Below, piece by piece: positions 26,075 through 59,714 of a stretch of 64,000 nucleotides of DNA. Numbering within the stretch: the stretch's first letter is position 1; each line of letters starts with the position of its first letter. The position numbers and the translations under genes were made by a program. Origin of the DNA: Escherichia phage EI-SP-GF; sequence record OR992645.1; one strand, written 5' to 3'. The notes below the pieces were generated by a model. That model did no database searches, was not told the DNA's origin, and saw only the letters and a list, made by a program, of their open reading frames with translations.

Positions 26075-28852
26075 ATGAGTATGTGGTCTTTCGACCTGGA
26101 GGCCTCTGGTTTACTAGAAGACCTAGATCTTTATTATCACTGCGGCTTGTTTAAAGAGCTGAATAAGAACCGTTTTATGCTGTTCCTTCCTCTAAATGAC
26201 CGCACACACTACTCTGAAGAGGATATAGAGAAGGCTAAGAACTTTATTCTGGCAAAGAAAACTCTTTATAAAGATTTTGAAGTTCGCATAGCAGATTTTT
26301 CAGAGTTGGAAGGTTGGCTTACAGGCAATTCTGACTGGTCACCCACAGCTTTGAACTGCCACAACTGCTACAGCTACGACTTTATGCTGATGGAGAGATT
26401 GTCCGGTATTCATTTTGATATGTTCCGTGACCCTAAGTGTATGGGGACTATCAACGACCACCAGGTTAATCTGTTTGATACGTTGGCGATGAGCCGAATC
26501 TTGTGGCCTGATCGCCCTTTACCAAAAGGTTGTCCGGACTCTGTATTCAACCCGGTTACTAAGAAAATGCAGCCTGTTGGTCCTCACGGACTTATGGCAT
26601 GGGGCTACGCCCTTGGTAACCAGAAAGTTCAAATTGATGACTGGCGCGATCTTCCGTTGTGGAAGTATGTGGATCGTGTATTCGAGGACGTTATCATCCA
26701 GGAGCTGCTCTGGAAAGAGCTGGTAGCGGAATCAAAAGGTGTATTCTACGGCAAATCTGACATGCAGAACTTTATGTACGATCCAGCCAAAGAGAAGCCG
26801 AAAGGGTTCAAGAAGATCACCTGGAAGAACGCATTACGTCGAGGCATGCTGCAGCACTTCCTGATGGAGCTGCAGGCCCGTCAGGGTGTATACTTCGACA
26901 TAGATGGAGCTATTGCTTTACGTGACCGTTGCGATGCGTGGATGAAAGAAATAGCTGATCGTGTTGAACCACAACTGCCTTTAAAAGAGCTGTCAATGTC
27001 TCAGCGGCCCAAGTTCCCTGAAAAGCCGTTTAACCAAGACGGGACAATCTCTAATAATGGTTGGAAATGGTTAAAAGATAAGCTTGGCTATCCTGTAGAC
27101 ATGAGCGCTTTAGAGTTCAAAGCCCCGCCTAAGAGAGCATTTACCTCTACAGGGGATGTCAGCAAGATGGGGATAAAATGGTGTGAAGAGATGGGCTGCA
27201 AAGACCCCGATAAGATGGCTGATTTCTTGAGAGGCTATATTAAGGGCACTTCCACACCACACCCTTTGCCTAAAGAGCTGATGGATCAGGCAATAAGTGA
27301 TCTACAGCAGAAGCGAATGCCGGACTGCAAGATACCTATGAAAATCAGCAATCAGGACGACATTAAGCGGTATCTGATCAGCGCTGGCTGGCTCCCGACA
27401 ATGTGGAGAACTAAGGATGTAACTAAAGACAGCAAGAAGAAAGCTCTACCTGATGCAGATGTTGATGCACGAGTATATGCTTATATGGACGAGCTTTTAG
27501 AGTCAGAGTATTGTGACCTAATTATCAACTTCTGGAACAAAACTGATGCTAAGTTCCAGACAACCGTGCACAAGTTCCGAAGCTTTCCTAACTCCGAAAG
27601 GATTAAAAAGGAAGTGTTCGGGAAAATACGTAGAAAAGCCAGGGCACTTATTACTTCTCCGCAACTGAAAGATACGTTTGGACACCTGTGTCCGAATCTT
27701 GAAAAATTGAACGGAGAGATGGCTAAAGATATCGTCTTGTGGTTATCATTGCGAAACCGCAGATCGGTCCTTGACCCAATCAAGGAGGATAAGGTTGATA
27801 CTGGTCTTCTTAATCACCCACGTTTGAAGATTGACCATAAGCTTCCTGCTAAAAGTTCTGGGCTAACAAACACTTCCAGACAGAAACACAGTATTTGTGC
27901 AAACATGCCTAAACCATCTCCTAAAGTGGTTATGGGTAAAGAGATGCGTAGTCTATGGGGTGTTCCTCCTGGATACTTTCAGATCGGTATTGACGGGTCC
28001 AACTTAGAGCAGCTTATCGGGGCTTGGGGTGCCTTTGAGTTCGACAACGGCCTGTATTATGATGTTGTAAGTAACGGAGACGCACACCAAAACAATGCTG
28101 AGGCATATACAAAAGTAGCAGGCAGAGAGGTGTCCCGTAACGACGGTAAACCTATCACGTATGGTGTTATGTACGGGGCACAAAAAGATAAAGTTGCAGA
28201 TATGCTGGACATCTCTCCAGAGTTGGGGCAAAGGGTAATAGATGCACTTTGGGATGCCAACCCCGGTCTTAAGGGGCGCAAAGAGGATCTGGAGAAATTC
28301 TGGGAAGCAACAGGTAAGAAGTTTATCTACTCTTTTGACGGTCATGCTATTTGGACACGCTCTAAACACTCTTTGCTTAATGCATATCAGCAAAATGGCG
28401 GTGCATCACTGTGTGACCTAGTTGGGATACTCATGCACCACCAGATGGTGAAGCGTGGATGGTATGATGAGGGTGTTCGTCGTATTATCTATTACCATGA
28501 CGAATATCAGCTTCAAGTGCCTGACACACCTAAGTATAAAACCGTATACACCTTCGACACAATTGAAGAGCTGGAAACATTTAAAGCCCAACAAGAGGCT
28601 AAACTTCATGTGTTCGACGGTCATAAGTACAAAAAGGCACGCAAAGATGAGGACGGAAACGAAGTGGTTGACAAGGATGGAAATACGGTATACGATCCTA
28701 TCTTGAACGATGACGGAAAGCTTGAACTTATCTGGAGCCCTGTGGGCGAAATGGTGGTGCATTGCTTCTGGCAGGCTTCTAAAATGATGGGCGTTCCGTT
28801 CCAGATCACAGGTGAATACTTGTGCGGTCGTAACTGGGGCGATTGTCACTAA
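26075..28852 (+). CDS. DNA polymerase, family A, with 3'-5' exonuclease motif
   Basis: Exo motif FDLEASGL at N-terminus; motif B RNDGKPITYGVMYGA; motif C YYHDEYQLQV; 925 aa. Confidence 0.85.
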   Translation: MSMWSFDLEASGLLEDLDLYYHCGLFKELNKNRFMLFLPLNDRTHYSEEDIEKAKNFILAKKTLYKDFEVRIADFSELEGWLTGNSDWSPTALNCHNCYSYDFMLMERLSGIHFDMFRDPKCMGTINDHQVNLFDTLAMSRILWPDRPLPKGCPDSVFNPVTKKMQPVGPHGLMAWGYALGNQKVQIDDWRDLPLWKYVDRVFEDVIIQELLWKELVAESKGVFYGKSDMQNFMYDPAKEKPKGFKKITWKNALRRGMLQHFLMELQARQGVYFDIDGAIALRDRCDAWMKEIADRVEPQLPLKELSMSQRPKFPEKPFNQDGTISNNGWKWLKDKLGYPVDMSALEFKAPPKRAFTSTGDVSKMGIKWCEEMGCKDPDKMADFLRGYIKGTSTPHPLPKELMDQAISDLQQKRMPDCKIPMKISNQDDIKRYLISAGWLPTMWRTKDVTKDSKKKALPDADVDARVYAYMDELLESEYCDLIINFWNKTDAKFQTTVHKFRSFPNSERIKKEVFGKIRRKARALITSPQLKDTFGHLCPNLEKLNGEMAKDIVLWLSLRNRRSVLDPIKEDKVDTGLLNHPRLKIDHKLPAKSSGLTNTSRQKHSICANMPKPSPKVVMGKEMRSLWGVPPGYFQIGIDGSNLEQLIGAWGAFEFDNGLYYDVVSNGDAHQNNAEAYTKVAGREVSRNDGKPITYGVMYGAQKDKVADMLDISPELGQRVIDALWDANPGLKGRKEDLEKFWEATGKKFIYSFDGHAIWTRSKHSLLNAYQQNGGASLCDLVGILMHHQMVKRGWYDEGVRRIIYYHDEYQLQVPDTPKYKTVYTFDTIEELETFKAQQEAKLHVFDGHKYKKARKDEDGNEVVDKDGNTVYDPILNDDGKLELIWSPVGEMVVHCFWQASKMMGVPFQITGEYLCGRNWGDCH

Positions 28853-28903
28853 TGTAAACTATCAACACACGGAAGTGTTGTTAGACAAAGAGAGGAGACT
28901 TTT

Positions 28904-29188
28904 ATGGTAGTAGAACCAACAAAAACATTTACCTCCATGACTATCCCTGTCATTATGCAGGTAGAATGCGTTCAGGTGTCCCAAGTATGGCCCGGTACTA
29001 AAATTCCAACAGGACCTGATTTCTTTCAGGTTGGCAAAGTGTACAATGTCTGGAAGGCACCAGATTGTTATCCTTTCATTAAAGATGACCGTGGAATGCT
29101 GTGGTATCTTGGAAATGATTTGACACTGCACCTTGGGAATGCTATTATTGCAGTATTCAGACTTAACAAGAAGGAGACTGATCAATGA
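28904..29188 (+). CDS. Small hypothetical protein, paralogue A of a tandem triplet
   Basis: GAGGAG RBS; shares pattern FF.VGKVY.V...IKDDRG..WY with next two genes. Confidence 0.6.
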   Translation: MVVEPTKTFTSMTIPVIMQVECVQVSQVWPGTKIPTGPDFFQVGKVYNVWKAPDCYPFIKDDRGMLWYLGNDLTLHLGNAIIAVFRLNKKETDQ

Positions 29189-29412
29189 CGACTTTGGTTA
29201 AAGCTACCTTTGTAGAAGAAAAGATGACAGACCTGTCATTCTTTAAAGAAGGAAAGACCTACGAGGTTTATTACGATAAAGCTCGTGCAAATAAAATGAT
29301 TAAAGACGAGGAGGGTATCTCCTGGTATATCTCCCATCTGGCAAATGGTGAGTATCATATCTATGGAACCACCCTACTTGCCAAGTTTGTAGCTGTTGAA
29401 GAGGATCTATGA
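29185..29412 (+). CDS. Small hypothetical protein, paralogue B
   Basis: AAGGAG RBS; FFKEGKTYEVYY...IKDEEGISWY. Confidence 0.6.
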   Translation: MTTLVKATFVEEKMTDLSFFKEGKTYEVYYDKARANKMIKDEEGISWYISHLANGEYHIYGTTLLAKFVAVEEDL

Positions 29413-29603
29413 AAGTAAAGTATCTGGCTGAAGGTATGAGTAGGTATTTTACCCTTGGAGAAGAATATTGGCCCTTTACAAGTAACGGCGATGTCTACGT
29501 GAAAGATAATTTCGGTACGCCGTGGTTTTTACACTCTAACGGGTTAGGATATTCTATTTATCGCAGTGCAATGAGTAACACAACCCTTGCAGAGTTTGTA
29601 TAG
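29409..29603 (+). CDS. Small hypothetical protein, paralogue C
   Basis: YFTLGEEYWPF...VKDNFGTPWF; 64 aa. Confidence 0.55.
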   Translation: MKVKYLAEGMSRYFTLGEEYWPFTSNGDVYVKDNFGTPWFLHSNGLGYSIYRSAMSNTTLAEFV

Positions 29604-29613
29604 AGGAGGTAGA

Positions 29614-29985
29614 ATGTTAGTAAAAGGTACCCACACAGTCAAACAGCGTATTGAAGTTGAGATTGATGATTGTGAGCTGAAGCATATTCTACGGTCATGC
29701 TCTAACGTTTTGCTCCTTAGTATTCTCCAGGAGCGAGCGGAGAACGAGTTCTTAAATGCACTGGCAGGCCACCCTGGCGACTTCTGTGTGCGTAAACGTG
29801 GAAATAACAAGCCTTGGCTATGGGAAATTGATGCCAGTTGGGATTACCACAAAAATGAAGGCATAGACGAACCTATCCGAGAGCTAACCGAAAATGAGGT
29901 TCAGATGTATGAAGATGTTTGCCAATGGGCAAAAAGTCAACAGACCTATCTCGATCCCTGGTGGATGATTGAAAATAGTCGTTGA
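29614..29985 (+). CDS. Hypothetical protein
   Basis: ATG 29614 after AGGAGG RBS. Confidence 0.55.
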   Translation: MLVKGTHTVKQRIEVEIDDCELKHILRSCSNVLLLSILQERAENEFLNALAGHPGDFCVRKRGNNKPWLWEIDASWDYHKNEGIDEPIRELTENEVQMYEDVCQWAKSQQTYLDPWWMIENSR

Positions 29986-30010
29986 CAAGAAGTAAGATTA
30001 GATATAAGAT
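29982..30010 (+). promoter_or_regulatory. Sigma70-like promoter (TTGACA-17-TAAGAT)
   Basis: TTGACA 29982-29987; GAGGAG RBS and ATG 30062 downstream. Confidence 0.55.
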
Positions 30011-30061
30011 GCTCCACACAAATAGGGAGTTGATTTTTAAACAATTGAGGAGACTGCTAAA

Positions 30062-30316
30062 ATGAAAATTACTTTGAAGCCAGAATGCGTTGCAAATGAC
30101 CGAGCTTTTAAAGATTGCACACTCGGTGCAATTTATGAAGCAGAGTTTTGTGAGAACCCTCTGGTAAAAGCCCTTCTGGAAGAAGGAACCTGTTTATCAC
30201 AAGAAGAACTTGATGAGTTGGAAAACTCGGCCCAGTGTCTTACCTTTAAAGATGATGAAGGGGATTCTGTCTGGTGCACTGTTAACGAAGTAGTTTTTGT
30301 AAAACCTGAGCATTAA
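30062..30316 (+). CDS. Small hypothetical protein, paralogue 1 of a tandem pair
   Basis: KPECVANDRAFKDCT...FKDDEGDSVWCT matches the next gene. Confidence 0.6.
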   Translation: MKITLKPECVANDRAFKDCTLGAIYEAEFCENPLVKALLEEGTCLSQEELDELENSAQCLTFKDDEGDSVWCTVNEVVFVKPEH

Positions 30317-30319
30317 TAC

Positions 30320-30348
30320 TTGACAATAGAGATGGGGTCTAATATAAT
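30320..30348 (+). promoter_or_regulatory. Sigma70 consensus promoter (TTGACA-17-TATAAT)
   Basis: TTGACA 30320-30325, 17 nt spacer, TATAAT 30343-30348. Confidence 0.7.
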
Positions 30349-30379
30349 GGCCCTATCAAAACGAAAGGAGACCACAGCA

Positions 30380-30652
30380 ATGACCAAACAATATCAACGA
30401 ATTAAAGCCAAGGTTAAGCCAGACTATCTGGAGAAGGACTCTGCTTTTCGGGACTGCACAGCAGACAAAATTTACACAGGGGCCGTCCTGCTAAACGATG
30501 AATTTGAAGTGGATGTGCTAGGTAAGGAGGCTACTATCAAGGATGACCAGGGAGATTATGTTTGTTGCACCACCAGAGAGCTGGAGGTATTAGAATACTT
30601 CGGTGAAATCTTCACCTCTCTTGATGATTACTTAGATGACGAGGAAGCGTGA
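30380..30652 (+). CDS. Small hypothetical protein, paralogue 2
   Basis: ATG 30380 after AAGGAG RBS downstream of promoter; KPDYLEKDSAFRDCT...IKDDQGDYVCCT. Confidence 0.6.
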   Translation: MTKQYQRIKAKVKPDYLEKDSAFRDCTADKIYTGAVLLNDEFEVDVLGKEATIKDDQGDYVCCTTRELEVLEYFGEIFTSLDDYLDDEEA

Positions 30653-31053
30653 TGAAAAACATTTGGGATATTAATATCTTTGAAGCCTCTGAGCTTGACG
30701 GTGCCGATGGAGTTATTATAGTCTCTGATGGAAAGGCAACATTGACCTCTGGACTGACCTATGAGGACACTACCTACGCACTGGGAGATCTTGCCTTGTT
30801 GAAATCCACAGGTGACTCTCTGGAAGAACGTCTGCAAGGATTTGCCTTTAAAGAAGGCACAAGCACCACACTGATGTGCACTACACGCACTGTTCAGTTG
30901 GGCAACGGAGTCTATATGGTCATTGCAGTGTGCCCCAAATTCAGCAACATCAATAAAGATGATGCTGACGCTGTCAACGACGTGGTTGTCCTCTTCGTTG
31001 GTGACGCTATGGCAGATCTGATGAATGCAGGAGAAGCAGCAAATGAAGACTGA
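30649..31053 (+). CDS. Hypothetical protein
   Basis: 134 aa ORF, overlapping start. Confidence 0.55.
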   Translation: MMKNIWDINIFEASELDGADGVIIVSDGKATLTSGLTYEDTTYALGDLALLKSTGDSLEERLQGFAFKEGTSTTLMCTTRTVQLGNGVYMVIAVCPKFSNINKDDADAVNDVVVLFVGDAMADLMNAGEAANED

Positions 31054-31345
31054 AAACATAAACCCAACAGGGTTCTTGAAAGTATACCGTGAACTGCTGT
31101 ATACTACAGAGGACAGTGTTCTAGAGTATCCAGAATACCTTTTGCTGTATAAGTATCTACAGGAAGCTGGTGAAAATCTACCAGTTAGTGCAGAAGGCGG
31201 TCCGAACTGGATATACAGCGCATGGAGAAAGGTTGACATTCTCCCAGATCCAGGAAAAGATATGGTAGTTTGGCAGCTTATCAACAACATCGGGATTCCA
31301 ATCTTTGATGAAGCTGTTAAAATCTATTTTGAACTTGACGATTAA
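31043..31345 (+). CDS. Hypothetical protein
   Basis: ATG 31043 after AGGAGAAG RBS. Confidence 0.5.
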   Translation: MKTENINPTGFLKVYRELLYTTEDSVLEYPEYLLLYKYLQEAGENLPVSAEGGPNWIYSAWRKVDILPDPGKDMVVWQLINNIGIPIFDEAVKIYFELDD

Positions 31346-31362
31346 TATCAGGAGACCTTAAG

Positions 31363-31608
31363 ATGGCTGAAGTAGTTGCTCGCGCAGGACAGAAAGTACG
31401 TTGTGTTGAAGTAGGTTTTGGTGGCAAAGGGTGTCAAAACTTGACTCAAGGTAAGGAATACACTGTTGTTTCTGGTGGTGGTGACGAAAGTATTGTGTTC
31501 GATGACCATATTCTGGATGTTGAAAACTTTGAAATAATTGACGATGATGGTGATCCGATCACCTGCCTGCTGAACGGGAGTTGGGGCACTTTCGAAGTAA
31601 TTGGCTAA
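31363..31608 (+). CDS. Hypothetical protein
   Basis: AGGAGA RBS; 81 aa. Confidence 0.55.
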   Translation: MAEVVARAGQKVRCVEVGFGGKGCQNLTQGKEYTVVSGGGDESIVFDDHILDVENFEIIDDDGDPITCLLNGSWGTFEVIG

Positions 31609-31645
31609 TAAATAGCTGTTGTAATTTACAGAAGGAGATGCTAAA

Positions 31646-32056
31646 ATGGTGTCTCCTTTATGTTGTTCAAATAAAATCGGAGATTCCACAATGGAACAAA
31701 TGAACGATCAAGCGTCGGTTGCGATGAACGAGCAAGAACAACCTCAAGAATTTTTCTTAGGGTTAAGCAAAGATCAAGTGTCTCTTCTGCTGGTACTTTC
31801 TTCTTTTATGGGAAGACTTCAGGAGCTCACACAACAACCAGAGGCTGAACAGTTATTTCAGGCTCTGCGCGAAGAAGAAAAATATCGTCGTTTGGATTAT
31901 GCCTTAGGTTGGGTAGCTCAGCAACGAGATATGCTAATGGCCCTTTCTGGGACGACAAGTTTTGCAATGGGCCTGTTGGCTCAAGTGCAGGACAAATTAA
32001 TTCAAGCAGGGTTTGCACACACAGCAAACACCAACGAAGAACAAGGAGACAAATAA
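31646..32056 (+). CDS. Hypothetical Gln-rich protein
   Basis: GAAGGAGA RBS; 136 aa. Confidence 0.5.
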   Translation: MVSPLCCSNKIGDSTMEQMNDQASVAMNEQEQPQEFFLGLSKDQVSLLLVLSSFMGRLQELTQQPEAEQLFQALREEEKYRRLDYALGWVAQQRDMLMALSGTTSFAMGLLAQVQDKLIQAGFAHTANTNEEQGDK

Positions 32057-49879: not shown

Positions 49880-50110
49880 ATTAACTGTCAGCTTGTTGGC
49901 TGTTAGCTTGTCAATTGTTATCTTGTTAATTGTTTTCATGCAAACGAATGTCATGGCTTATCATCTCTGTGTAAACAGTTTGGGCGTAAACTATTCAGGC
50001 GTAAACAGTCTATGAGTAAACAGTGAGATATGGAATAGTAACAGCCGTTATTGTGTCATATTGTGCTGCAGTGCGTTATGTTGTGCCATATTGTGTCACT
50101 ATTATGTCAG
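49880..50110. repeat. Three short tandem-repeat families in non-coding DNA (CTTGTT-type, GTAAACAGT x4-5, ATATTGTG x3)
   Basis: GTAAACAGT copies between about 49971 and 50035; TTGTTAGCTTGT-like units 49885-49935; ATATTGTG units 50058-50095. Confidence 0.65.
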
Positions 50111-51557
50111 ACAAGTTTTTCCTCTCTTTGTCAAGTGCTGCATGAAAAATTTACAAACTGGTATGGTAGCATTTTTGCGGCCCTGTTTACATTCAGTTGT
50201 GTATGTATAACCCTTGTTGTGTGGGCGTTTAGACGTCTGGACGGTCAGAAGTCCGCAGGTTAATATCTAATCTATTGGCTGCTGACTATATCCCACACAA
50301 ATAGTAAGAAATATAATTGTTATATGCGTAAACAGTAACCCATGTTATCAATCCCTGTATGTATCGCCAGTGGTGCGCATAATGGGTATTATGTTAAATT
50401 GCCCGTAATGATAACCATTCTCACAATGATAGGTATTCTCATTCACTCCCACAAGATAGATTGCAAATGTTGTGCCACTGTGTGAACGGCCTGGCCTATT
50501 AATTTGCCTCACTGCCTCGATATTTGAGAATTATTATAAAAATGAGAAGTATTCCCATTCCGTCCGCCTGGCAGCACTCCAGTCGCTACCGGCTCCTGAC
50601 AGGGCAGCACTCCTGTAGGACAAGCACAAAATCGGGGCATAACTGCCTGTTCAGATATTTCTGGCTAACTCTTCAGGCCTGTGTGGGAAAAGCCAACCTC
50701 TCCGGCGGCGGGGAGGGGTCAATTAAAAAATTTAGGTGGTGTATGAAGCGCTCTTCAGGCAAGGTGTGTATTATGGGATGAAACCCTCTTCAGGTGATGA
50801 TATTTGTGGGTGTGATATTTGCTGGAAAGCCAGATATGACGGGACTCCCGGCGGGGCAGGGGTAGTACAGGCAGGGAAAATGTGAGGATGTGGTGGGAGT
50901 AAATTGATCAGGCAGGTAGGATATGGAATATGTTACAAGTATGTTAAATATGGAGGCAGGATATTTGTAAGATTTGTGTGTAAAATCAAAGACTTAAGTG
51001 GTGTTGTGGTATTTTCTATAAATAATTCAAGTTTAATAGGTAATATTTGTCTCTATCCGCTTTGTGTGGTAAACAGATTCTAATTGAATTGGTTTACAAG
51101 TGTATATAAAGTATACAAATTAAAGATATAAGAAACCCCCCTCCCCCTTCGGCTACCATTCACCTTTTCCTCTGACTGGTACTTAAACACTTATTCAGAC
51201 TCTTCAGGTTATCACCCATATACTATATGGCAGTGACTGGTGTCCTCCGGCCCCTCTTTCGTCACCCGTCCGCTTCGCCATGCTAATGCCATAGCTAAAG
51301 GTTCGGTTGTTCACCCTGTTCACTCAGGTGTATCTCCATACCCCTTCAAACCGAAGAGAACAGAAAACCCGAATTACTCGGTAAAAGAAAAGAGAAGAAC
51401 TTAATTTTATCAGGATAGGCAAGAATGTCAAGGGATGACTGCTCACTAAACAAGCAAACAGTCATGTGTGGTAGGTAAGTGATTGTGGTGGTGGAAAATT
51501 TAGTTGAAAGATGTGTTATAGTGCTTCCAGCACTTTAGCCGGGCGGCTAATTGTGTG

Positions 51558-51773
51558 TCAGTCCAGCGGTTCATCCTCCACTTCACTGAAATCAATGTTC
51601 AGGGTCTCTTCCCAACCATCGATCTCAGCACAAGAGTGAAGTTCTTTAGGGTTTACTCCCAAAGCCTCAGCAACAGAGTCTATATTTAACACCTCTGGCA
51701 GGTATGATTCATCGAATTCAAGGTAAATCAGGCCACGAGTGTTGTCAGCTCCACCAAATATTTCTATCTTCAT
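51558..51773 (-). CDS. Small acidic hypothetical protein
   Basis: 71 aa ORF, last gene of minus-strand array. Confidence 0.5.
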   Translation of the reverse strand: MKIEIFGGADNTRGLIYLEFDESYLPEVLNIDSVAEALGVNPKELHSCAEIDGWEETLNIDFSEVEDEPLD

Positions 51774-51894
51774 GAAATCTCCTCTGGAAATGAGAGTGTG
51801 AACAGGGTTTTATACGTCCCAATGCACAGGAATTATGCACGTTTGCCTCTTCAGGCCATGCTTTAGCATGAGGAACCTGTGTGGGCTCGGTGCT

Positions 51895-52233
51895 TCATAG
51901 TCTACCACCTCTGAACTCTTCGTGCTCAGGCATAATAGAGAACCAGATATCTACGATGTCCTCCCACGTCAGGTCATCAGCCTCAGGATCTACCTGGAGC
52001 GAAGATGGAGAATCTTCAGAATCGAAGTTTTCCTCTTTCACTGGCTCAGCCAATGGACATATGGTCACTCCTTCAGATGTCTCTTCAGATGCATGTGTGT
52101 TGATCATGTTCCACCCGTGAGTATTCCGGCAACAGCCGCTATGGACGTAATGATCATCAGGATCACCACTAAAACTTCGGACAATGTTCTCATTGTGTAT
52201 TCCATATTCTCCAAACTGTGTGGATACTATCAC
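51895..52233 (-). CDS. Acidic hypothetical protein (start uncertain)
   Basis: Minus-strand promoter 52224-52252 overlaps the annotated start; true start probably at an internal Met. Confidence 0.4.
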   Translation of the reverse strand: MIVSTQFGEYGIHNENIVRSFSGDPDDHYVHSGCCRNTHGWNMINTHASEETSEGVTICPLAEPVKEENFDSEDSPSSLQVDPEADDLTWEDIVDIWFSIMPEHEEFRGGRL

Positions 52234-52252
52234 TGTAGCGGTAATGTGTCAA
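52224..52252 (-). promoter_or_regulatory. Sigma70-like promoter (TTGACA-17-TAGTAT), minus strand
   Basis: Reverse complement reads TTGACA, 17 nt, TAGTAT. Confidence 0.5.
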
Positions 52253-52417
52253 CAGAAACGCCGCGAGGGTTTGGTTAAAATCCGAGCGTATGGTGATTTG
52301 GGTCAAAACGGACGTGCGTTCTCGCTACGCTCGAAATAGAGAGTTGTTTGTAGGAAGCTCTTAAACGCTTTGTAATGAGATTAACTACCCAAGGTATGCA
52401 ATCGTGCACCAGATAAA

Positions 52418-52445
52418 GAAAAGGACGCCACAGAGCGTCCTAGGT
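52418..52445 (-). terminator. Rho-independent terminator, minus strand
   Basis: GGACGC-tctgtg-GCGTCC followed on the minus strand by TTTTCTTTAT. Confidence 0.65.
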
Positions 52446-52465
52446 GTCTTAAATTTGATGTTTTG

Positions 52466-52777
52466 CTATACCCATGAGGGCTTATCAAGGTTGGAGTAGC
52501 TGAAAGGTGTCAAAAGGTGACTGTCAAAATCTCTCAAACTATCCAGATCTTTTTCCTCGTCCTGACACCATCTGTGCCTACATTTATTGTTGTAGTGCAT
52601 AGAATGCATAGCGTTCTGCAACTTAACAGGCACAAGCGATTCAGGAGTAGATAGTATTGTTGGGTATGCCAGGACTATCTCAAACAATGGAAACACATCG
52701 AAACTGAAGTTTGTTTCTGCAGAGGTTGATGGCATGTAGGAGTATTTAGCCGCCTTTGTAGACATAATCCACCTCAC
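52466..52777 (-). CDS. Hypothetical protein
   Basis: 103 aa ORF. Confidence 0.5.
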   Translation of the reverse strand: MRWIMSTKAAKYSYMPSTSAETNFSFDVFPLFEIVLAYPTILSTPESLVPVKLQNAMHSMHYNNKCRHRWCQDEEKDLDSLRDFDSHLLTPFSYSNLDKPSWV

Positions 52778-53106
52778 ACAGGTTTGATAATACCTTCACC
52801 GAATAACTCTTCGTATCTAATCTTGTCCGGATCCCACTCCTGGATAATTTCGAAGATAATATCCAACCCTGGGATAATCACTTCTCCAGTGTCAAGCTTA
52901 GCAAGAACAAAACCGGAAGGTTGAATGGTTTCCCAGTTACGGCGATCAGAATAAAATACTTCGAAAATATCACCAACCTCAATCCGTTTCTGTTGCTCAA
53001 GATGCTCAAGGTTCTCTTTCATACGGATGCAGCGGATTTTTCGTGCAGGCCATAGACCACCTGCATCACGTTCATTCAATTCTTTTACAGTGATCGGCAT
53101 ACCCAT
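52774..53106 (-). CDS. Hypothetical protein
   Basis: 110 aa ORF. Confidence 0.55.
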   Translation of the reverse strand: MGMPITVKELNERDAGGLWPARKIRCIRMKENLEHLEQQKRIEVGDIFEVFYSDRRNWETIQPSGFVLAKLDTGEVIIPGLDIIFEIIQEWDPDKIRYEELFGEGIIKPV

Positions 53107-53127
53107 CTCAAATCTCCTTCATAGGTA

Positions 53128-53150
53128 GTAAAAAGAGGGGCTTGGGCCCC
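53128..53150 (-). terminator. Rho-independent terminator, minus strand
   Basis: AGAGGGGC-ttgg-GCCCCTCT with TTTTTAC on the minus strand. Confidence 0.65.
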
Positions 53151-53159
53151 TCTTTGTCA

Positions 53160-53465
53160 TTATTCTACAGAGCGTTTGAACAGAATGTCTGCCTCAGACA
53201 TGTGCTCAACCTCTTCTTCGATTTTAGCTCGACGTTTTTCAGCCTCATAGCGAATATCGAACTCGGTAGCCACCAGAGATTTGATGAATTTAGGAGAATA
53301 CAGGTGATCCTGCTTCTCAACGAGAATGATATCCTTAATGGCATCTTTCAGATCTTTAATCTGAAGTTGGAGTTCCACCAGTTCTTCGATTGTTTTGCGG
53401 AGGCGATCACGCTCTGCAGTGTCAGAAGGAAGAGAGGTGAACAGTTCAACTTTAGATTTAGCCAT
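53160..53465 (-). CDS. Coiled-coil hypothetical protein
   Basis: 101 aa, heptad-like charged repeats. Confidence 0.55.
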   Translation of the reverse strand: MAKSKVELFTSLPSDTAERDRLRKTIEELVELQLQIKDLKDAIKDIILVEKQDHLYSPKFIKSLVATEFDIRYEAEKRRAKIEEEVEHMSEADILFKRSVE

Positions 53466-53493
53466 AGTAAGAGTCTCCTTATGTTGTTTTAAA

Positions 53494-53745
53494 TTAACGT
53501 TCTACAAAAATACCGTTCAGTTCAATAACCAGGAATTTCTGGTCTTCACTATCGTCTCGTGCCAGCACCTCACAGACGTATCGGTCATCTCCATCATCAT
53601 CGCAGTCAAATACAAGACTGAGGACTTTATCATGATAAACCTTCGCCACTACCGCCTCGTAAGTATTGCCGATTGTGAATCCAAGATAATCTCCAATGCA
53701 TTTGACAACAACATGATCGCCAGCATTCAAGTCAATCTTCGTCAT
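53494..53745 (-). CDS. Hypothetical protein
   Basis: ATG 53745 after AAGGAG RBS (the longer track ORF lacks an RBS). Confidence 0.55.
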   Translation of the reverse strand: MTKIDLNAGDHVVVKCIGDYLGFTIGNTYEAVVAKVYHDKVLSLVFDCDDDGDDRYVCEVLARDDSEDQKFLVIELNGIFVER

Positions 53746-53900
53746 TACTGCGCTCCTTGGGTAATAATACTGTATGTAAAACTTTAACCAGAGATGTGAA
53801 TAACGCCCCAAAACACACCGATAGCGCTAAAACAGACAAGGCCATCATTAAAGCTTCAGTAAAATCAGTCACTCCTCACCTCTTGTTAGTCACTATACTG

Positions 53901-54164
53901 TCATTTATCCTTGCCGTCAAGAACTTTTTTAAATCTTTCAGGTATATCGCCTGTTCTTAGATAGCTCATGACCTCACAAGGTTCCCATTTGAATTTCTTG
54001 CAAAGCAGGGCGGCTGAGATTGTTTCATTGCGAAAAGAAAGGATATTAATATCCCATTCTGAGAACCCCAACTTCCGAAGGGTAGCTACAGAAATCCTCA
54101 CCGCAACCCAGCAGCAAAAACATGCAACAAACGCCACTGCTATAACCCACATCAGGATGTTCAT
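53901..54164 (-). CDS. Small membrane protein
   Basis: N-terminal TM MNILMWVIAVAFVACFCCWVAV. Confidence 0.5.
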   Translation of the reverse strand: MNILMWVIAVAFVACFCCWVAVRISVATLRKLGFSEWDINILSFRNETISAALLCKKFKWEPCEVMSYLRTGDIPERFKKVLDGKDK

Positions 54165-54253
54165 ACAAGCACCTCACTGAAATACAAGACACAGTGTTAA
54201 GGTTGCAGACCAGCAAATAATTAACAGTGCCGTTGCAACCTTGGCAAGATTTA

Positions 54254-54541
54254 TCATAGTGCCTCTAAGATTTCATACCCTTCGGGTCGGAATACAAGCC
54301 ACTCCGTGGATCCGTTTGGTCGATACGCTTTATACAGAACAACCTGATCTCGGCACATGCACATAGCTACATAGTTTTCATCCACACCTGCAGCCTGCAT
54401 TGCATCTTCTTCTCCGGTAACTGCTTTGCTTACAACCTCCTTAGTAGGCAGGTGTGCGATCAGCTCGTCACCATCATTAATTCCAAAATGGCTGAGTTCT
54501 CCACTGGTATCTTTAATCTTGATCTTAACCAAATCCTTCAT
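54254..54541 (-). CDS. Small acidic protein
   Basis: 95 aa; MK..KIKIKD start and acidic EGYEILEAL end, like neighbours. Confidence 0.55.
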   Translation of the reverse strand: MKDLVKIKIKDTSGELSHFGINDGDELIAHLPTKEVVSKAVTGEEDAMQAAGVDENYVAMCMCRDQVVLYKAYRPNGSTEWLVFRPEGYEILEAL

Positions 54542-54870
54542 TAGTCTTCCCCCAAGTTCAAAGGTCCTAAGATTTCATATGCCAGATTAGAAGTTACCAG
54601 GGGATCTTCTGCATCTTTAGTATTATACCACCCGTGAATAACCAGAGTCCCACTTTGCTTCATGTCTAACTGGAACTGTTCTGCCGTTTCCTCATCCATC
54701 TCCAAGATCTCCATGAGGTATTTGATGTTAGGAAGGTATGCAGCTGTTACAGTCCCCTCTACCAGGCCTTCAGGCCAACCTACATCCGGATGACAAGTAG
54801 GGACCAGAGAGGTCAGCTTGATAGTGTATGCTTTTTCTGCACGAGCCTTCAGTAACGGATCAATTTTCAT
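54541..54870 (-). CDS. Small acidic protein
   Basis: 109 aa ORF. Confidence 0.55.
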   Translation of the reverse strand: MKIDPLLKARAEKAYTIKLTSLVPTCHPDVGWPEGLVEGTVTAAYLPNIKYLMEILEMDEETAEQFQLDMKQSGTLVIHGWYNTKDAEDPLVTSNLAYEILGPLNLGED

Positions 54871-55220
54871 TATTCTTCCTCCTCTTCGGTGCCTGCTTCC
54901 AGTAGTAAGTTAAGAACATCTTCAGCAGAAGGTTCGTAGAACTCTTGGCCTTCGTTGTCGATGATACGATAGTCATCACCACGAATAATTAGAGGATCGT
55001 CATCAAAACCTTCAAGACCTTTAACAACGACAACACGGTCGATTGCCATCATTGTAAGAACTTTATCAACATCTTCCTCTGCTACACCATACTGCAGCAG
55101 AATGTCTTTGGTAGGAGGGACAGCATCCACCACAACACCGTTACCAAAACCTTCCGGAAGTTTAGCTAAAATATCTTCCGGAACCACATTCATATCAAAA
55201 CCTGTGATCTCTACTTTCAT
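54870..55220 (-). CDS. Small acidic protein with poly-Glu tail
   Basis: 116 aa; ends EAGTEEEEE. Confidence 0.55.
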   Translation of the reverse strand: MKVEITGFDMNVVPEDILAKLPEGFGNGVVVDAVPPTKDILLQYGVAEEDVDKVLTMMAIDRVVVVKGLEGFDDDPLIIRGDDYRIIDNEGQEFYEPSAEDVLNLLLEAGTEEEEE

Positions 55221-55481
55221 TTACAGAACCTCTTCGTCAACTACTTCATAAAAATGGCTTGGGATTGCAATGGCGTTCTCGCCTTCACCTAAGAACACTG
55301 TCCCACTAACGATTAACATTAGAAGAACGTCTGCGATACCTTCCTCTGGGACGTTGCCAAAACCTTTAATCAGCTCGTAGGTTGGAAGATTTACCTCTAA
55401 GATGTCACCATCCTTAGAACGGAAATCAACACCGTCCTGAATCTCTGCCGTTTCAAGGTTTTTCAATTTAATCTTCATCAA
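55221..55481 (-). CDS. Small acidic protein
   Basis: 86 aa; MMKIKLKNLE...YEVVDEEVL. Confidence 0.55.
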   Translation of the reverse strand: MMKIKLKNLETAEIQDGVDFRSKDGDILEVNLPTYELIKGFGNVPEEGIADVLLMLIVSGTVFLGEGENAIAIPSHFYEVVDEEVL

Positions 55482-55557
55482 TCAGTCTCCTGTCTTGTTA
55501 AGATGAAGGTATTATTGCACACAGGGTTGGTGTTGTCAACACCTGTGTGTCATAAAA

Positions 55558-55953
55558 TTACTGAAACAGTGCAGATAAATTACCTTCTGGTGGGAACTTA
55601 TCTGCCAGGAATGGGGTTAGAACAGTGGCCTTCTGAAGATCAGGGGTCCACTCATTGTTCAGAACATCCCAGTAGTACGCAATGTTGCTGTGTGGGTGAC
55701 GCATTACGAACTTTTTCCCTTCGTAGCCATCTGAAACCTCTACAGAAGAAATAACAACAGAATCTTCAAGGGTTTCTTCATAGAAAGATCCGCCTTCAAA
55801 TTTCCAACGAGATGCAAGAGCCCCTGCCTTGAACGCTGCAGATAACGGACTGTCGGCAAGAACATACATTTCTTGCACTCTGTCGCTGCGATCTTTGCTT
55901 CTTACGTTGTATACAGTATCTGAGCTATACTCAACACGGTATAGGCTTACCAT
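55558..55953 (-). CDS. Hypothetical protein, paralogue of 57760-58158
   Basis: Shares KKFVMRHPHSNIAYYWDVLNNEWTP with the other copy. Confidence 0.6.
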   Translation of the reverse strand: MVSLYRVEYSSDTVYNVRSKDRSDRVQEMYVLADSPLSAAFKAGALASRWKFEGGSFYEETLEDSVVISSVEVSDGYEGKKFVMRHPHSNIAYYWDVLNNEWTPDLQKATVLTPFLADKFPPEGNLSALFQ

Positions 55954-56312
55954 TACCGCACCTCCTCAATAACTTCCACATCTGAACCTACCACAAATGC
56001 AAAAGGACAGGTTTCATGAAAGATATCCGGATCGCCGCCAAGCTTGCTAACAATCTCTCCACCACTAATAAACACAAGCTCACCGATATTCATCAGATTG
56101 CTGAAATAGTACCCATAATGATTAAAGAATGCAGCAGGATCAGGTAGACTAGTAGCCTCAAGCACTACATCAGTTGAGGTTACTTTCTTATCATAACCTC
56201 TCGCCTTTTGAGATGCAAGATCTGCAGAATCCTCAGGAGACCGGAGATGCACAGGGATTGTTTCACCAATAAAGCGTACTTTCATATTATCACCCAACAA
56301 CCATAGCTTCAA
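55953..56312 (-). CDS. Hypothetical protein
   Basis: 119 aa ORF; internal alternative start MKVRF. Confidence 0.5.
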   Translation of the reverse strand: MKLWLLGDNMKVRFIGETIPVHLRSPEDSADLASQKARGYDKKVTSTDVVLEATSLPDPAAFFNHYGYYFSNLMNIGELVFISGGEIVSKLGGDPDIFHETCPFAFVVGSDVEVIEEVR

Positions 56313-56553
56313 AAGGAGTCATGAACGAATAAACGGCATCATCATCTGCTTCAGGGAATGCTCCCAAAGACTTCATGTCTGAGCCCTTGACAAATACAAG
56401 GTTTTGATCAAAGGCTTCTTGGGGGTCAATCCGATACATATTTCGTAGAATATCGCTTACCTCCTCATCAAGAGGTGAGTATGCTGTGCACGTTTTTCCG
56501 ATCAAGCTTTGAGAATCAGGGTATCCACCTGAAGTTTTAAAATAAACAATCAT
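56290..56553 (-). CDS. Small protein related to the DLIAAGA family
   Basis: VFVKGSDMKSLGAFPE resembles VMVKGKDLLAAGAES. Confidence 0.5.
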   Translation of the reverse strand: MIVYFKTSGGYPDSQSLIGKTCTAYSPLDEEVSDILRNMYRIDPQEAFDQNLVFVKGSDMKSLGAFPEADDDAVYSFMTPFEAMVVG

Positions 56554-56644
56554 ATAGTATCACCTCTGGTAAGAGATTGGGATTCCTTTCCCACAAATAA
56601 TTACAAACCTTCCTTATCGAGGAAGCATGCTAATCCGAGCAGGA

Positions 56645-56914
56645 TTATTCCTCTACAATCTCATACACATCAGGAGTTACAATCAACTCTTCTCCGTTAC
56701 CCGGTGCAACAAACACCACCAAGCCTTCAGGTGTGTGCTTTTTAGCCATCTCGATAACATCTTCTCGCAGAGCTGGCTCCATCAGATCAAAGCCTTCACC
56801 CAGGGCATCACGAACCACCTTCATATAGTCCACTGGTTGTGCTTCAACAATCATGCCTTCAACCAGTCCACAGTTTTTGTCTGCCAGCTCAGTTTTGAAT
56901 AATTTAATTTTCAT
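56645..56914 (-). CDS. Small acidic protein
   Basis: 89 aa; MKIKLFK...YEIVEE. Confidence 0.55.
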   Translation of the reverse strand: MKIKLFKTELADKNCGLVEGMIVEAQPVDYMKVVRDALGEGFDLMEPALREDVIEMAKKHTPEGLVVFVAPGNGEELIVTPDVYEIVEE

Positions 56915-57051
56915 TTAGAGGTCTCCTCAATTATTTGATATTAATAGCCGTAACCTAACACATTAACTACAACTGCGATTGCAAACATAATTTCAAAGCA
57001 TGCAATCTCTACATTTGGGACTAATTTCTTAATCATGCCCATTGTAGCACC

Positions 57052-57369
57052 TCATTCTCCAAAGTCAATCTTTACTTTGCCTTTCCCCTTACCTTTCTTT
57101 CCACCACATTTAGCCAACTGACGTGCTGCAACATCTACCATACGGTCAGTTGCCTCGTAAGCATCACTGCCTTTAGCTTTGGCAATAACTTCTTTTCCGG
57201 AAGTGTCAAAAATGAACGCCATAACTTCCTGGTGATCATTTTCAACTTTTACACTCACACGTGCATAGTTGGCAGAGGGGTGCAAACGCTCCAGCTTAGA
57301 CATTTTGTGGGAAATGAAAGACACCATACCTTCAGTGATTTCTACGTTGCCAGTGATTTCAATTTGCAT
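57052..57369 (-). CDS. hpf: Ribosome hibernation promoting factor homologue (HPF/RaiA/YfiA family)
   Basis: MQIEITGNVEITEGM...KLERL...VSVKVE...GKEVIAKAKGSDAYEATDRMVDVAARQLAK aligns along its length with the E. coli HPF sequence as recalled; Lys/Gly-rich tail. Confidence 0.8.
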   Translation of the reverse strand: MQIEITGNVEITEGMVSFISHKMSKLERLHPSANYARVSVKVENDHQEVMAFIFDTSGKEVIAKAKGSDAYEATDRMVDVAARQLAKCGGKKGKGKGKVKIDFGE

Positions 57370-57416
57370 AACGTGTTCCTTTTAAAGAAGAGGGAACCAA
57401 ACCCTCTTTGAAAACA

Positions 57417-57445
57417 ATGATACTAAATCTGAAGCGTTGTGTCAA
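57417..57445 (-). promoter_or_regulatory. Sigma70-like promoter (TTGACA-17-TATCAT), minus strand, driving the HPF gene
   Basis: Reverse complement reads TTGACA, 17 nt, TATCAT; followed by hairpin AGAGGG-tttggtt-CCCTCT and AAAGGAAC RBS. Confidence 0.6.
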
Positions 57446-57451
57446 CAGTTT

Positions 57452-57742
57452 TTACAGCTTGTCGTCGATAGTTTTTAAAATATCCACAGCAAGATCTGCC
57501 ATTTTTCGAACATACTCTGCAAACTCAACAGGATCCTTGATCAAAGAATTCACAGGGTCGTACCCTAGAGCGTTCAAAATGGCTGCAGCATCTACAACCT
57601 TCTCATCATTTGCGAAGATCTCTCCATCAAACTTGTAGGTCCATTTTGAGTCAATCTTGGCAGAGAAGGATTGGTCAACGCTTGTTACACCATCCTTTTT
57701 AAACTCTCCGGTGTTATCAGTGTCCAGAACTAAATCCATCAT
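57452..57742 (-). CDS. Hypothetical protein
   Basis: 96 aa ORF. Confidence 0.55.
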   Translation of the reverse strand: MMDLVLDTDNTGEFKKDGVTSVDQSFSAKIDSKWTYKFDGEIFANDEKVVDAAAILNALGYDPVNSLIKDPVEFAEYVRKMADLAVDILKTIDDKL

Positions 57743-57759
57743 GTTAGTACCTCACTGTT

Positions 57760-58158
57760 TCAGTCTAGCTTTTCTTCAACAACCCCATAACTTGGGGCAG
57801 AGTCAAGAGCTTTCTGGTTTAAAAGTGGCGTAGCAGAATCTGCAAACGGTGTCCAAGTTTTTGTTCTGGCATTCCAGTAATGCTTCACTCTGGAATCTGG
57901 ATGCACTATAACAAAAACTTTTTCACTTGTCAACACATTAATTTCTTCTACACCCTTGCTGATAATTTCTCCGTCATAGCCACCAATCTGGTATCCTTCG
58001 TACCAGGTTCTTGCATATGCATAGCCAGCCTGCCAGCATGCAGCCTCCTCCGAGGTGGAGACTACGTAGAAGTCTTTCTCAAATTCTGGGATACGCCCTT
58101 GCTTTACGCTCCAAGACCCGCGAATTTTCATTGTAACTTTGAACAGTTTATTTTTCAC
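57760..58158 (-). CDS. Hypothetical protein, paralogue of 55558-55953
   Basis: KVFVIVHPDSRVKHYWNARTKTWTP. Confidence 0.6.
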   Translation of the reverse strand: MKNKLFKVTMKIRGSWSVKQGRIPEFEKDFYVVSTSEEAACWQAGYAYARTWYEGYQIGGYDGEIISKGVEEINVLTSEKVFVIVHPDSRVKHYWNARTKTWTPFADSATPLLNQKALDSAPSYGVVEEKLD

Positions 58159-58170
58159 AACGGTTACCCC

Positions 58171-58425
58171 TCACAGCTCTACAATCTCTGCATCTGACCC
58201 TGCCCCAAAGGCATAATAGGATTCTTCCCCGAAATAATATTCCGGTGCACCAGCAGCGATCAGGTCTGATCCCAAGATAAACACCACGTTGTGGCCTACA
58301 TAACTGTGATGTTGCCGCACAGGATCATCCCACGGCAACCCTTCAAAGTATACCGCAGGAACGACCTTTCCATTCAGGAAGGATTGTCCCAAGTAGACGT
58401 TAGAATCAAGAATTTTAACCTTCAT
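58171..58425 (-). CDS. Small protein, DLIAAGA family member
   Basis: MKVKILDSNVYLGQ...GSDLIAAGAPE. Confidence 0.6.
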   Translation of the reverse strand: MKVKILDSNVYLGQSFLNGKVVPAVYFEGLPWDDPVRQHHSYVGHNVVFILGSDLIAAGAPEYYFGEESYYAFGAGSDAEIVEL

Positions 58426-58642
58426 TCTCGTCCTCCACTATCTCTACATCCTCACCAAGGGCAAAGTTGTAGGTCCACTGACTGTCAAAGCAGTCCTGAG
58501 ATGCACCAGCGGCAATAAGATCTGCACCTTTTATTTTTAAAAGGTCAGGATAATCTTCGTTAGGGATAGCGGTAAACACTTTCCCCACTAAGGGCTCCTG
58601 ACCAATATAGAAGCTTGAATCTAAAACTTTAACTTTCATCAA
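58415..58642 (-). CDS. Small protein, DLIAAGA family member
   Basis: MMKVKVLDSSFYIGQ...GADLIAAGASQ. Confidence 0.6.
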   Translation of the reverse strand: MMKVKVLDSSFYIGQEPLVGKVFTAIPNEDYPDLLKIKGADLIAAGASQDCFDSQWTYNFALGEDVEIVEDENEG

Positions 58643-58926
58643 CGGTCTCCCTCAGGCGGTTGTGGGACGTAAACACTGTTACGAATATCGTCAGCAGTGT
58701 AGTAATAAGTGGTTCCAACCCTATCTCGGGCTGCAATGTACTCTGCTATACCAATAAGTGCCATTGATTTGGTGGCGTATCTTCCCAACTCGTTAGCTCC
58801 CCAGTAGAATTTAGACCAGTAGGGAATAAGACCGAACAAATATACCTTTTGACGAACTTCCCAGTAAGTGCCTTTTCCGACAAGTTTAAACTCTACTTCA
58901 CTACTGTTAATCTTTTTCATTATCAA
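58639..58926 (-). CDS. Hypothetical protein
   Basis: 95 aa ORF. Confidence 0.55.
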   Translation of the reverse strand: MIMKKINSSEVEFKLVGKGTYWEVRQKVYLFGLIPYWSKFYWGANELGRYATKSMALIGIAEYIAARDRVGTTYYYTADDIRNSVYVPQPPEGDR

Positions 58927-59219
58927 TCTCCCTCTACCGTGGTCGGATTGTCAGTAAGAAATTGAGCATTGGCTGGAGGCACGCCTGACATTTTCCACAC
59001 AACCATAAGTTTGTAACCAGGCACTCTATTAAGTGCAGATCGAGTAGAGTTTGTGCACGTATACTTTCGCTTTCCAAACCCGTTCTCCATCATAATCCAG
59101 TACCCAGTATCTTTGTCACCAGGTATCGGTAGACCACCTTCATCAACCCACTGAATGGACCACGGCACGATGGCTACAGCTTTATATTTAAACTTTTTAA
59201 ACCACTCAAAAAGTTTCAT
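58923..59219 (-). CDS. Hypothetical protein
   Basis: 98 aa ORF. Confidence 0.55.
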   Translation of the reverse strand: MKLFEWFKKFKYKAVAIVPWSIQWVDEGGLPIPGDKDTGYWIMMENGFGKRKYTCTNSTRSALNRVPGYKLMVVWKMSGVPPANAQFLTDNPTTVEGD

Positions 59220-59519
59220 AATTCAGCCTCGCATAGACATAATCACTATAAACAGGCAAATAATGAATCCGAATGCCACGCCACCCATAAACGTTAATAT
59301 TGATGCGACCATAATCAATCAGCCTCGTTTGGCAGCTCTTCCATTTTTACATACCGGAAAGTGTTGCCGTAATAGTTGATCCATGACATCAGCTCACTTT
59401 CTTGCTCTTCCTCTGGGATGGACTCTCGAACGCTGACAAGTTTTAAGAAAACCCAATCACAATCCACCCCCCATCCTACCAGACAGACAATAGTGCTTCA
59501 TAAAACCCTCCCGCCTGGT

Positions 59520-59714
59520 TTAGAATATTGCTTCTTCCATTGCACCTGAGAGCAACAAAGAGGTAATCTGGCTAACATTCATCTCAGACTCCACTTCCTC
59601 TCCTTTGAAAGGTTCGCGGCAGAATAGGACTGTTTCAGGATTTTTACTTCGAACAATATAATACAAATCATTCAAAGTGTTGTAGTAATAAGTGTTAAAA
59701 TGTAAGTTTTTCAT
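59520..59714 (-). CDS. Hypothetical protein
   Basis: 64 aa ORF. Confidence 0.45.
   Translation of the reverse strand: MKNLHFNTYYYNTLNDLYYIVRSKNPETVLFCREPFKGEEVESEMNVSQITSLLLSGAMEEAIF

Follow-up and report, generated by a model that had tools for sequence, protein, structure and literature searches.

Two tandem gene sets downstream of the DNA polymerase gene

The stretch of DNA considered here (the window) comprises 64,000 nucleotides of Escherichia phage EI-SP-GF (OR992645.1), and its subject is two sets of tandem small genes located downstream of the DNA polymerase gene: A1, A2, and A3, which form set A, and B1 and B2, which form set B (Table 1). Two further open reading frames (ORFs), C and D, are candidate copies related to set A. 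Megablast of window positions 28000–32000, combined with taxonomy, identifies the source genome type as Vequintavirus (rV5-like Escherichia coli myophages). This search returns 118 phage records at 90–95% identity, nearly all of them Escherichia rV5-like Vequintavirus myophages, of which 113 include 80% or more of the 4-kb region at no less than 90% identity. In the Vequintavirus relatives, the orthologous genes are annotated as hypothetical proteins. An earlier note on this DNA, made from the sequence alone, had named the five ORFs of sets A and B, and the ORF list places each of them exactly there.

Set A lies directly 3′ of the primase-helicase and polymerase genes. ATGA stop/start overlaps join A1 to A2 (29185–29188) and A2 to A3 (29409–29412), and AGGAG-type ribosome-binding sites accompany the coupled starts. 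Because of these overlaps, the set A genes are probably translationally coupled and their products probably made together. B2 is the form starting at ATG-30380 of a longer ORF that begins with TTG, and its promoter occupies the 5′ part of this longer ORF.

Judged by alignment statistics, the paralogy is genuine in both sets. Single BLASTP comparisons give expectation values (E) of 3e-7 for A1–A2, 3e-4 for A2–A3, 0.013 for A1–A3, and 6e-10 for B1–B2. Smith-Waterman scores set against 3000 shuffles reach z 10.7 for A1–A2 (0/3000), 5.6 for A2–A3 (3/3000), 2.8 for A1–A3 (55/3000), and 13.3 for B1–B2 (0/3000). With ortholog profiles from eight aligned genomes, consisting of the window and the orthologues of seven other Vequintavirus genomes, hhalign gives 8e-6, 2e-4, 6e-3, and 3e-8 for the same four pairs, against a background of E ≥ 0.03 for unrelated neighboring genes. 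In phmmer searches of all 901 stop-to-stop ORFs in the window, the partners rank at the top (A1–A2, 1e-4; A2–A3, 0.06–0.08; B1–B2, 3e-8). Identity between paralogues is 20–33%. The direct link between A1 and A3 is weak, and the two are joined through A2 and through an external module profile described below; since A1, A2, and A3 each match this profile, which is free of A-family sequences, the weak link is closed. Pairwise and profile alignment, which the earlier note had named as a check, thus bear out its claim of tandem paralogy in both sets. Its core motif for set A has the right pattern, except that A3 carries P in place of V and that the gap before (I/V)KD amounts to 8–10 residues. Its motif for set B is also right in pattern, but it lacks one residue of the true form, KP...(A/E)(N/K)D. 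Between set A and set B, both hhalign and the shuffle tests remain at background.

An 18-nt repeat encoding AFK(D/E)(C/G)T occurs in B1 (30104) and B2 (30443), and again at 30844–30861 in the next gene (30649–31053). This gene was considered as a third B copy and rejected, as the spacing of its downstream motif differs and hhalign of B1 against it gives E 0.028; the shared repeat is probably due to chance, though it could be a remnant.

Table 1. Genes and promoter-like sites of the window that are discussed in the text.
Feature	Coordinates	Strand	Description
A1	28904..29188	+	94 aa; rV5 ORF224; phrog_12922; N-terminal extension and long β1-β2 loop
A2	29185..29412	+	75 aa; rV5 ORF223; phrog_12623; module copy
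A3	29409..29603	+	64 aa; rV5 ORF222; phrog_12802; module copy
B1	30062..30316	+	84 aa; rV5 ORF220; pI 4.2; inserted acidic segment
B2	30380..30652	+	90 aa; rV5 ORF219; pI 4.2; putative SH3-like five-strand barrel; acidic C-terminal tail
C	31363..31608	+	81 aa; rV5 ORF216; probable module copy with insertion; small, acidic; outside the region covered by the earlier note
D	53494..53745	-	83 aa; rV5 ORF157; candidate dispersed module copy; small, acidic; promoter-like site 53920-53892
Promoter-like site in the 3′ end of A1	29120..29148	+	TTGACA-17-TATTAT, extended -10 TG; 11/12 match; 37 nt upstream of A2
B1 sigma70-type promoter	29982..30010	+	TTGACA-17-TAAGAT; 10/12 match; P220 in the rV5 record
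B2 consensus sigma70 promoter	30320..30348	+	TTGACA-17-TATAAT; 12/12 match

A wider family of repeat modules

No curated family was found for set A or set B. Pfam holds no match for A1–A3 or B1, while the matches of B2 to DUF7127 (0.033) and of C to DUF7244 (0.017) are both below threshold, and NCBIfam gave no match for the tested proteins. In PHROGs, each A gene constitutes its own family, with weak cross-matches to one another and to phrog_3249 and phrog_3523, and B1 belongs to phrog_12544, with a cross-match to phrog_11936. Word-indexed protein searches with A2 and B2 recover Vequintavirus orthologues only, and tblastn of A2 against phages gives nothing significant outside the genus; a weak, non-syntenic match in Cronobacter phage CR9 (E 0.4) was dropped. 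Distant relatives were reached by an exhaustive HMMER search with an A-family profile against 1.84 billion representatives. Beyond orthologues, this search finds the metagenomic proteins P0047 (346 aa, four matched stretches), P0048 (571 aa, five), P0049 (204 aa, two), and P0050 (179 aa, two). The repeated unit spans 60–80 residues and follows the pattern G-x-x-[ILV]-x-C ... [FW][FW]TxGKxYxV ... [IV]xDDxGxxW ... with a final FxV strand. Against the external module profile, built without A sequences, hhalign gives 92% probability and E 5e-7 for A1, 95% and 6e-8 for A2, and 96% and 1.6e-9 for A3, with unrelated controls at E 0.09–0.8. The multi-repeat proteins P0047 and P0048 also match the A3 family, phrog_12802.

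The module is found in proteins of diverse architecture, and no Pfam family is shared among 18 module sequences. In Lactobacillus-phage-type proteins of 100–120 aa, one N-terminal unit is followed by a helical tail. Many Enterococcus phage proteins carry the module, among them AL2 gp07 (L016 2276–3085), which has two clear units, what may be a third SH3-like segment, and a coiled coil at the C-terminus. This protein is labeled 'cytidine deaminase', a label that recurs in related Enterococcus records, and no Pfam deaminase domain is found in it at E ≤ 0.1. In P0049, which lies on a phi29-like contig, and in a 219-aa protein of Enterococcus phage vB_EhiS_268, the module is fused to DUF3310. By eye, DUF3310 can be aligned with the C-terminal portion of T7 gp1.7, a nucleotide kinase, and PHROGs of the DUF3310 type are annotated as nucleotide kinases; T7 gp1.7 itself was rejected as a module carrier, as its N-terminal part lacks the module. 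The gene for the five-repeat P0048, on a phage contig of 53 kb, is flanked by DnaB and Toprim genes. In the Drexlerviridae proteins pSf-1 gp20 and Bas11 gp48, a unit-like motif can be seen by eye in the C-terminal half, with weak HMM support (E about 0.006–0.05). Overall, the repeat-module family (PHROGs 3523, 3249, 16833, 15694, and 4927) shares with A1–A3 the same consensus of about 60 residues and the location of its genes in replication or early regions. It differs in that its members contain 2–6 units per chain, often fused to DUF3310 or a coiled coil, whereas set A has one unit per gene and its genes are coupled by ATGA overlaps.

Further copies of the module exist within rV5 itself. A scan of the rV5 genome that covered all but the structural-gene stretch 50001–59999 identified four significant copies: ORF224, ORF223, and ORF222, which are A1–A3, and ORF116 (DQ832317.1 88106–88342; HMM E 4e-9), which lies between nrdD and nrdG just past the 3′ end of the window. 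The label of ORF116 as a 'putative minor capsid protein' is, on this match, probably wrong. The same scan gave as candidates ORF216 (C), ORF157 (D), and a stretch close to ORF135. By eye, C and D both fit the module. In hhalign with the external module profile, C reaches 63% probability and E 7e-5 (HMM E 0.004–0.04), and D reaches 58% and E 1e-4 (HMM E 0.03–0.15, not significant). The family of C, phrog_4927, is matched by P0048 at 2e-18, and shuffle tests of D give 1.3e-3 with the third repeat of that protein (P48r3) and 1.8e-3 with A2. Iterated HMM searches did not raise C or D to significance. Both are thus probable, though not proven, further copies of the module.

Predicted folds and the Gp54 barrel

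Structure prediction, another of the checks that the earlier note had named, yields models in which set A adopts a six-stranded barrel of the Gp54 type and, more tentatively, set B an SH3-like barrel. The predicted set A fold is a small single domain of six strands with a prominent β1-β2 loop, and it matches the barrel of Gp54 from Escherichia phage Bas11 (JohannLBurckhardt; PDB 9AXB), which was published as a very rare, nearly unique topology (PMC11578894). In the study of Zhang et al. (Nature 2024; PMC11578894), Gp54 is an alternative trigger of the fused toxin-antitoxin defence CapRelSJ46: it binds to the antitoxin domain and activates the protein, although most of the Gp54 homologues tested do not. 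Its own function is unknown; it is non-essential, and it has been suggested that it might inhibit another defence (PMC11578894).

Sequence comparisons with Gp54 (taken from MZ501085.1) do not establish the same connection. The module HMM finds Gp54 at E 0.9, a profile of six Gp54 homologues reaches E 0.025–0.5 with the module and with the set A genes, and a PDB profile search linking the module to Gp54 found nothing. The FKKG24 and GLTW43 segments of Gp54 line up by eye with the invariant Gly and Trp of the module, and hhalign proposes the same register. Once the barrel has opened, Gp54 contacts CapRel through residues several of which (G24, W43) fall on the positions that the paralogues share. 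Gp54, at 66 aa, is similar in size to the set A proteins (64–94 aa), is likewise mildly acidic, and also has its gene in a group of small early-type genes close to genes for replication and a methylase. In contrast, Gp54 matches only phrog_7421 in PHROGs, rather than families 12922, 12623, and 12802 of set A. Its family, as traced by tblastn, is confined to Drexlerviridae-type siphophages with one copy per genome, whereas set A consists of three coupled copies in a myophage. On the predicted model, set A therefore belongs to the Gp54 fold class, and the sequence comparisons do not place it in the Gp54 sequence family. Taken together, the assignments of identity and fold are regarded as very probable.

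Set B is tentatively predicted to be SH3-like. Structure scores to the SH3-like/KOW barrels (the Ski2/Mtr4 KOW insertion, the InlB SH3-like domain, and the Sho1 SH3 domain) are low and generic. These barrels have no sequence relation or shared binding motif with set B, and B1 and B2 differ from them in being very acidic, with an acidic tail in B2. A PDB profile search with set B found nothing. Against the external module profile, B1 and B2 give hhalign E 0.046 and 0.07, where the best controls reach about 0.09, and HMM E 1.5–2.4. Joining set B to the module family by sequence thus failed in hhalign, shuffle, and HMM tests, and set B was kept separate.

Promoters

Conserved sigma70-type promoter sequences lie upstream of both B1 and B2, and the earlier note's claim of a separate consensus promoter for each B gene holds in that both look real and are conserved in the eight genomes. 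The TTGACA hexamers of the two promoters and the TAAGAT of B1 are invariant in 8/8 genomes, with variation in the spacer bases; the B2 -10 hexamer is TATAAT in 7/8 genomes and TACAAT in JEP1. Both hexamers of the candidate promoter-like site inside A1 (29120–29148) are also invariant in the eight genomes while its spacer bases vary. Such sites are not special to the B pair: sigma70-like sequences matching at least 10/12 positions occur every 1–2 kb across the window, oriented with the genes, and 33 such promoters are listed for the rV5 genome (PMC3606486). The sigma70-like promoters lie on the plus strand from 12 to 49 kb and on the minus strand at 6–12 kb and 51–63 kb, and the GC skew flips at the same borders.

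Conservation and selection

Orthologue protein identity across the seven other Vequintavirus genomes is 84–100%, and the order and number of set A genes are identical in all eight genomes. With B2 as the tblastn query, the B pair shows up at 230 places in 115 records, two per listed record. Gene-wide dN/dS by the Nei-Gojobori method is 0.007 for A1, 0.17 for A2, 0.10 for A3, 0.11 for B1, and 0.09 for B2; the 3′ portion of the polymerase gene gives 0.03 for comparison. Since these ratios lie at 0.007–0.17, all five ORFs are, by this measure, expressed coding frames under purifying selection. The promoter-like site inside A1 may contribute to the low ratio of that gene. In A2 and A3, amino-acid change (dN) is about five times that of the polymerase.

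The region 28904–32056 is a recombination mosaic. Each of its small genes has two allele classes, and which genomes group together depends on the gene. The gene at 30649–31053, for example, is either 99–100% or 85.8% identical, and A2 is either 96–97% or 84–89% identical. One lineage carries a 33-bp in-frame tandem duplication in A1, seen in the rV5_ev168 orthologue (L001 4052–4117) and in the cluster representative P0043. The two copies in rV5_ev168 match at 87%, the segment reading KAPDCHPFIKE/KAPNCYPFIKD, and the resulting protein has 105 aa. This duplication is missing from the window, rV5, and six other genomes.

Outside the genus, the A/B block is not found at the syntenic site in Seunavirus (GAP31 and PVP-SE1), Mydovirus (Seu621), or Certrevirus (F5M2A), where other small genes follow the polymerase gene. 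Nor is there a module copy at the syntenic site of these sister genera, the best match being L006 345–563 with E about 0.2. The block therefore consists of genus-specific accessory genes. As the paralogues are only 20–33% identical, the duplications are considered old, fixed, and older than the radiation of the genus. The earlier note had taken local duplication and divergence as typical of genes under arms-race selection and had proposed comparing copy number across related phages. This comparison reveals no variation, with set A the same in eight genomes and the B pair present as two copies in 115/115 records. An ongoing arms race would be expected to show as turnover in copy number or as relaxed dN/dS, and there is no sign of either in these genomes and records; duplication and divergence as its mark are left unsupported given the fixed copies, the low dN/dS, and the age of the paralogues.

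Two observations on the surrounding sequence and records may be added. The DNA polymerase gene is uninterrupted in the window (26075–28852); in FV3, PVP-SE1, and JEP1, homing endonuclease genes of the HNH or LAGLIDADG type interrupt the polymerase gene or come after it. Among the database records, about sixteen with MG0656xx accessions are named 'Campylobacter phage' (host C. jejuni) and are more than 90% identical to E. coli rV5-like phages over positions 28000–32000; the C. jejuni host label of these records looks doubtful.

Proposed function

The explanation favored overall, and considered moderately probable, is that the two old, fixed tandem paralogue sets after the polymerase gene encode small non-structural accessory proteins. 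In the proposed mechanism, host RNA polymerase would express the A and B genes along with the replication genes, and their products would be accessory proteins of the early or middle phase that work through protein-protein binding. The residues common to the paralogues (the aromatic pair, Gly, Tyr, Asp-Asp-x-Gly, and Trp) appear to determine the fold, and at most other positions the paralogues differ; since the fold residues are shared and the other positions have diverged, each paralogue may bind a different host or phage partner. Nucleic-acid binding is disfavored because the proteins range from neutral to strongly acidic (pI 4.2–6.5). Such binding could serve host takeover or counter-defence and, as with Gp54, might not be needed under laboratory conditions. 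The A1-A2-A3 array resembles a multi-repeat protein split into separate chains, which suggests joint action. This mechanism, with partner binding in the service of host takeover or counter-defence, is put forward tentatively and is judged somewhat less probable than even.

Several points weigh against this reading. The Gp54 link comes from predicted structure, with the sequence profiles unconnected, and could reflect convergence on a small barrel; moreover, the resemblance transfers little about function. The surface divergence of the paralogues is drawn from sequence alignments, and the timing of expression solely from promoter sequences. In addition, the location of several module genes among replication and nucleotide-metabolism genes, together with the fusion of some of them to gp1.7-like DUF3310, favors a different role. 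Host-protein partners are thus favored by the precedent of Gp54 and the accessory distribution, and replication or nucleotide enzymes by the gene neighborhoods and the DUF3310 fusions.

Following the second of these lines, the barrels might be modules of replication or nucleotide metabolism that dock on the phage replisome or on nucleotide enzymes as adaptors or regulators, rather than acting on host immunity. The position of set A directly after the primase-helicase and polymerase genes agrees with such a role, as do the placement of rV5 ORF116 between nrdD and nrdG, that of the five-repeat P0048 between DnaB and Toprim genes, and the fusion of the module in P0049 and the phage 268 protein to a domain of nucleotide-kinase-type PHROGs. 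However, the sister genera have the same polymerase and primase and lack the block, the proteins contain no nucleotide- or DNA-binding motifs and are neutral to acidic, and proximity within phage early regions is weak evidence, which leaves this role with a modest chance. Selection by host immunity would instead make the locus an arms-race cluster of anti-defence or decoy paralogues, in which duplication and divergence are driven toward diversity. The block is Vequintavirus-specific and lies in a plastic region after the polymerase gene, the A2 and A3 proteins change about five times as fast as the polymerase within a mosaic of alleles, a recent 33-bp in-frame duplication has arisen in A1 of one lineage, and Gp54, the structural twin of set A, is sensed by CapRelSJ46, with its authors suggesting possible inhibition of another defence (PMC11578894). 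Such a cluster is nonetheless unlikely, as set A is identical in the eight genomes and the B pair is constant in copy number, dN/dS is low in all five genes with A1 among the most constrained genes measured, and the divergence between paralogues is ancient.

Two further alternatives concern the relatedness of the genes rather than their role. It is conceivable, though quite improbable, that one ancestral barrel gave rise to A, B, C, and D alike; they would then make up one superfamily, with six or more copies in the region. The motifs of the sets look alike by eye (xTxGKxY/DCTxxKIY followed by (I)xDDxGD), the A2 and B2 models are predicted to start in the same way with β1 and a short helix before the remaining strands, C and D match the module profile at E ~1e-4, and weak scores link B1 to C and to the repeats of P0048 (P 6e-3 to 8e-3). 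Against this, B1 and B2 score no better than the controls with the module profile (E 0.05–0.07 against about 0.09), and the A-versus-B comparisons stay at background. As for the similarity being a matter of chance, with the motifs as compositional accidents in spurious ORFs, the proteins are indeed short and the A1–A3 pair alone is marginal (P about 0.015), but the shuffle and profile statistics refute it, and strong purifying selection in the annotated frames, the ribosome-binding sites and coupled starts, and the confident fold prediction leave next to no room for it.

A bolder extension of the favored explanation, that of fixed accessory paralogues, would see the Gp54 barrel as the tip of a large modular phage family of single genes, coupled arrays, and polypeptides of 2–6 repeats. 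Its members would bind, inhibit, or act as decoys for host proteins including CapRel-type sensors, each paralogue tuned to its own target, with A1-A2-A3 as a split three-repeat protein or a hetero-oligomer. This extension is speculative and, at present, unlikely.

Implications for rV5-like phages and the module family

The earlier note missed the wider domain family of set A, the probable extra copies beyond the region it described, and the translational coupling of the A genes. A text search of the rV5 genome paper finds no mention of paralogues or duplications (PMC3606486), and in the literature searched, no earlier work appears to connect the rV5 genes with the wider repeat module and the Gp54 fold. 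The finding widens a recently described kind, the Gp54 fold, and is not a new kind of system.

For the annotation of these phages, a tentative family and fold can be offered for at least four rV5 ORFs without informative annotation (ORF222–224 and ORF116), and two public annotations are suggested to be wrong, namely the 'putative minor capsid protein' of ORF116 and the 'cytidine deaminase' of AL2 gp07. As the two gene sets also illustrate, fast turnover does not necessarily accompany tandem paralogy in the early region of a phage. Direct recognition by a bacterial immune sensor has been demonstrated for few small phage proteins, Gp54 being among them. Should the Gp54 fold be common to the rV5 A proteins and the module family, hundreds of natural variants would be available, several of them within a single tractable group of E. 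coli phages that is represented in the BASEL collection. These variants could then be used to ask what role the fold plays, which defences sense it or are blocked by it, and why it has been multiplied so often.

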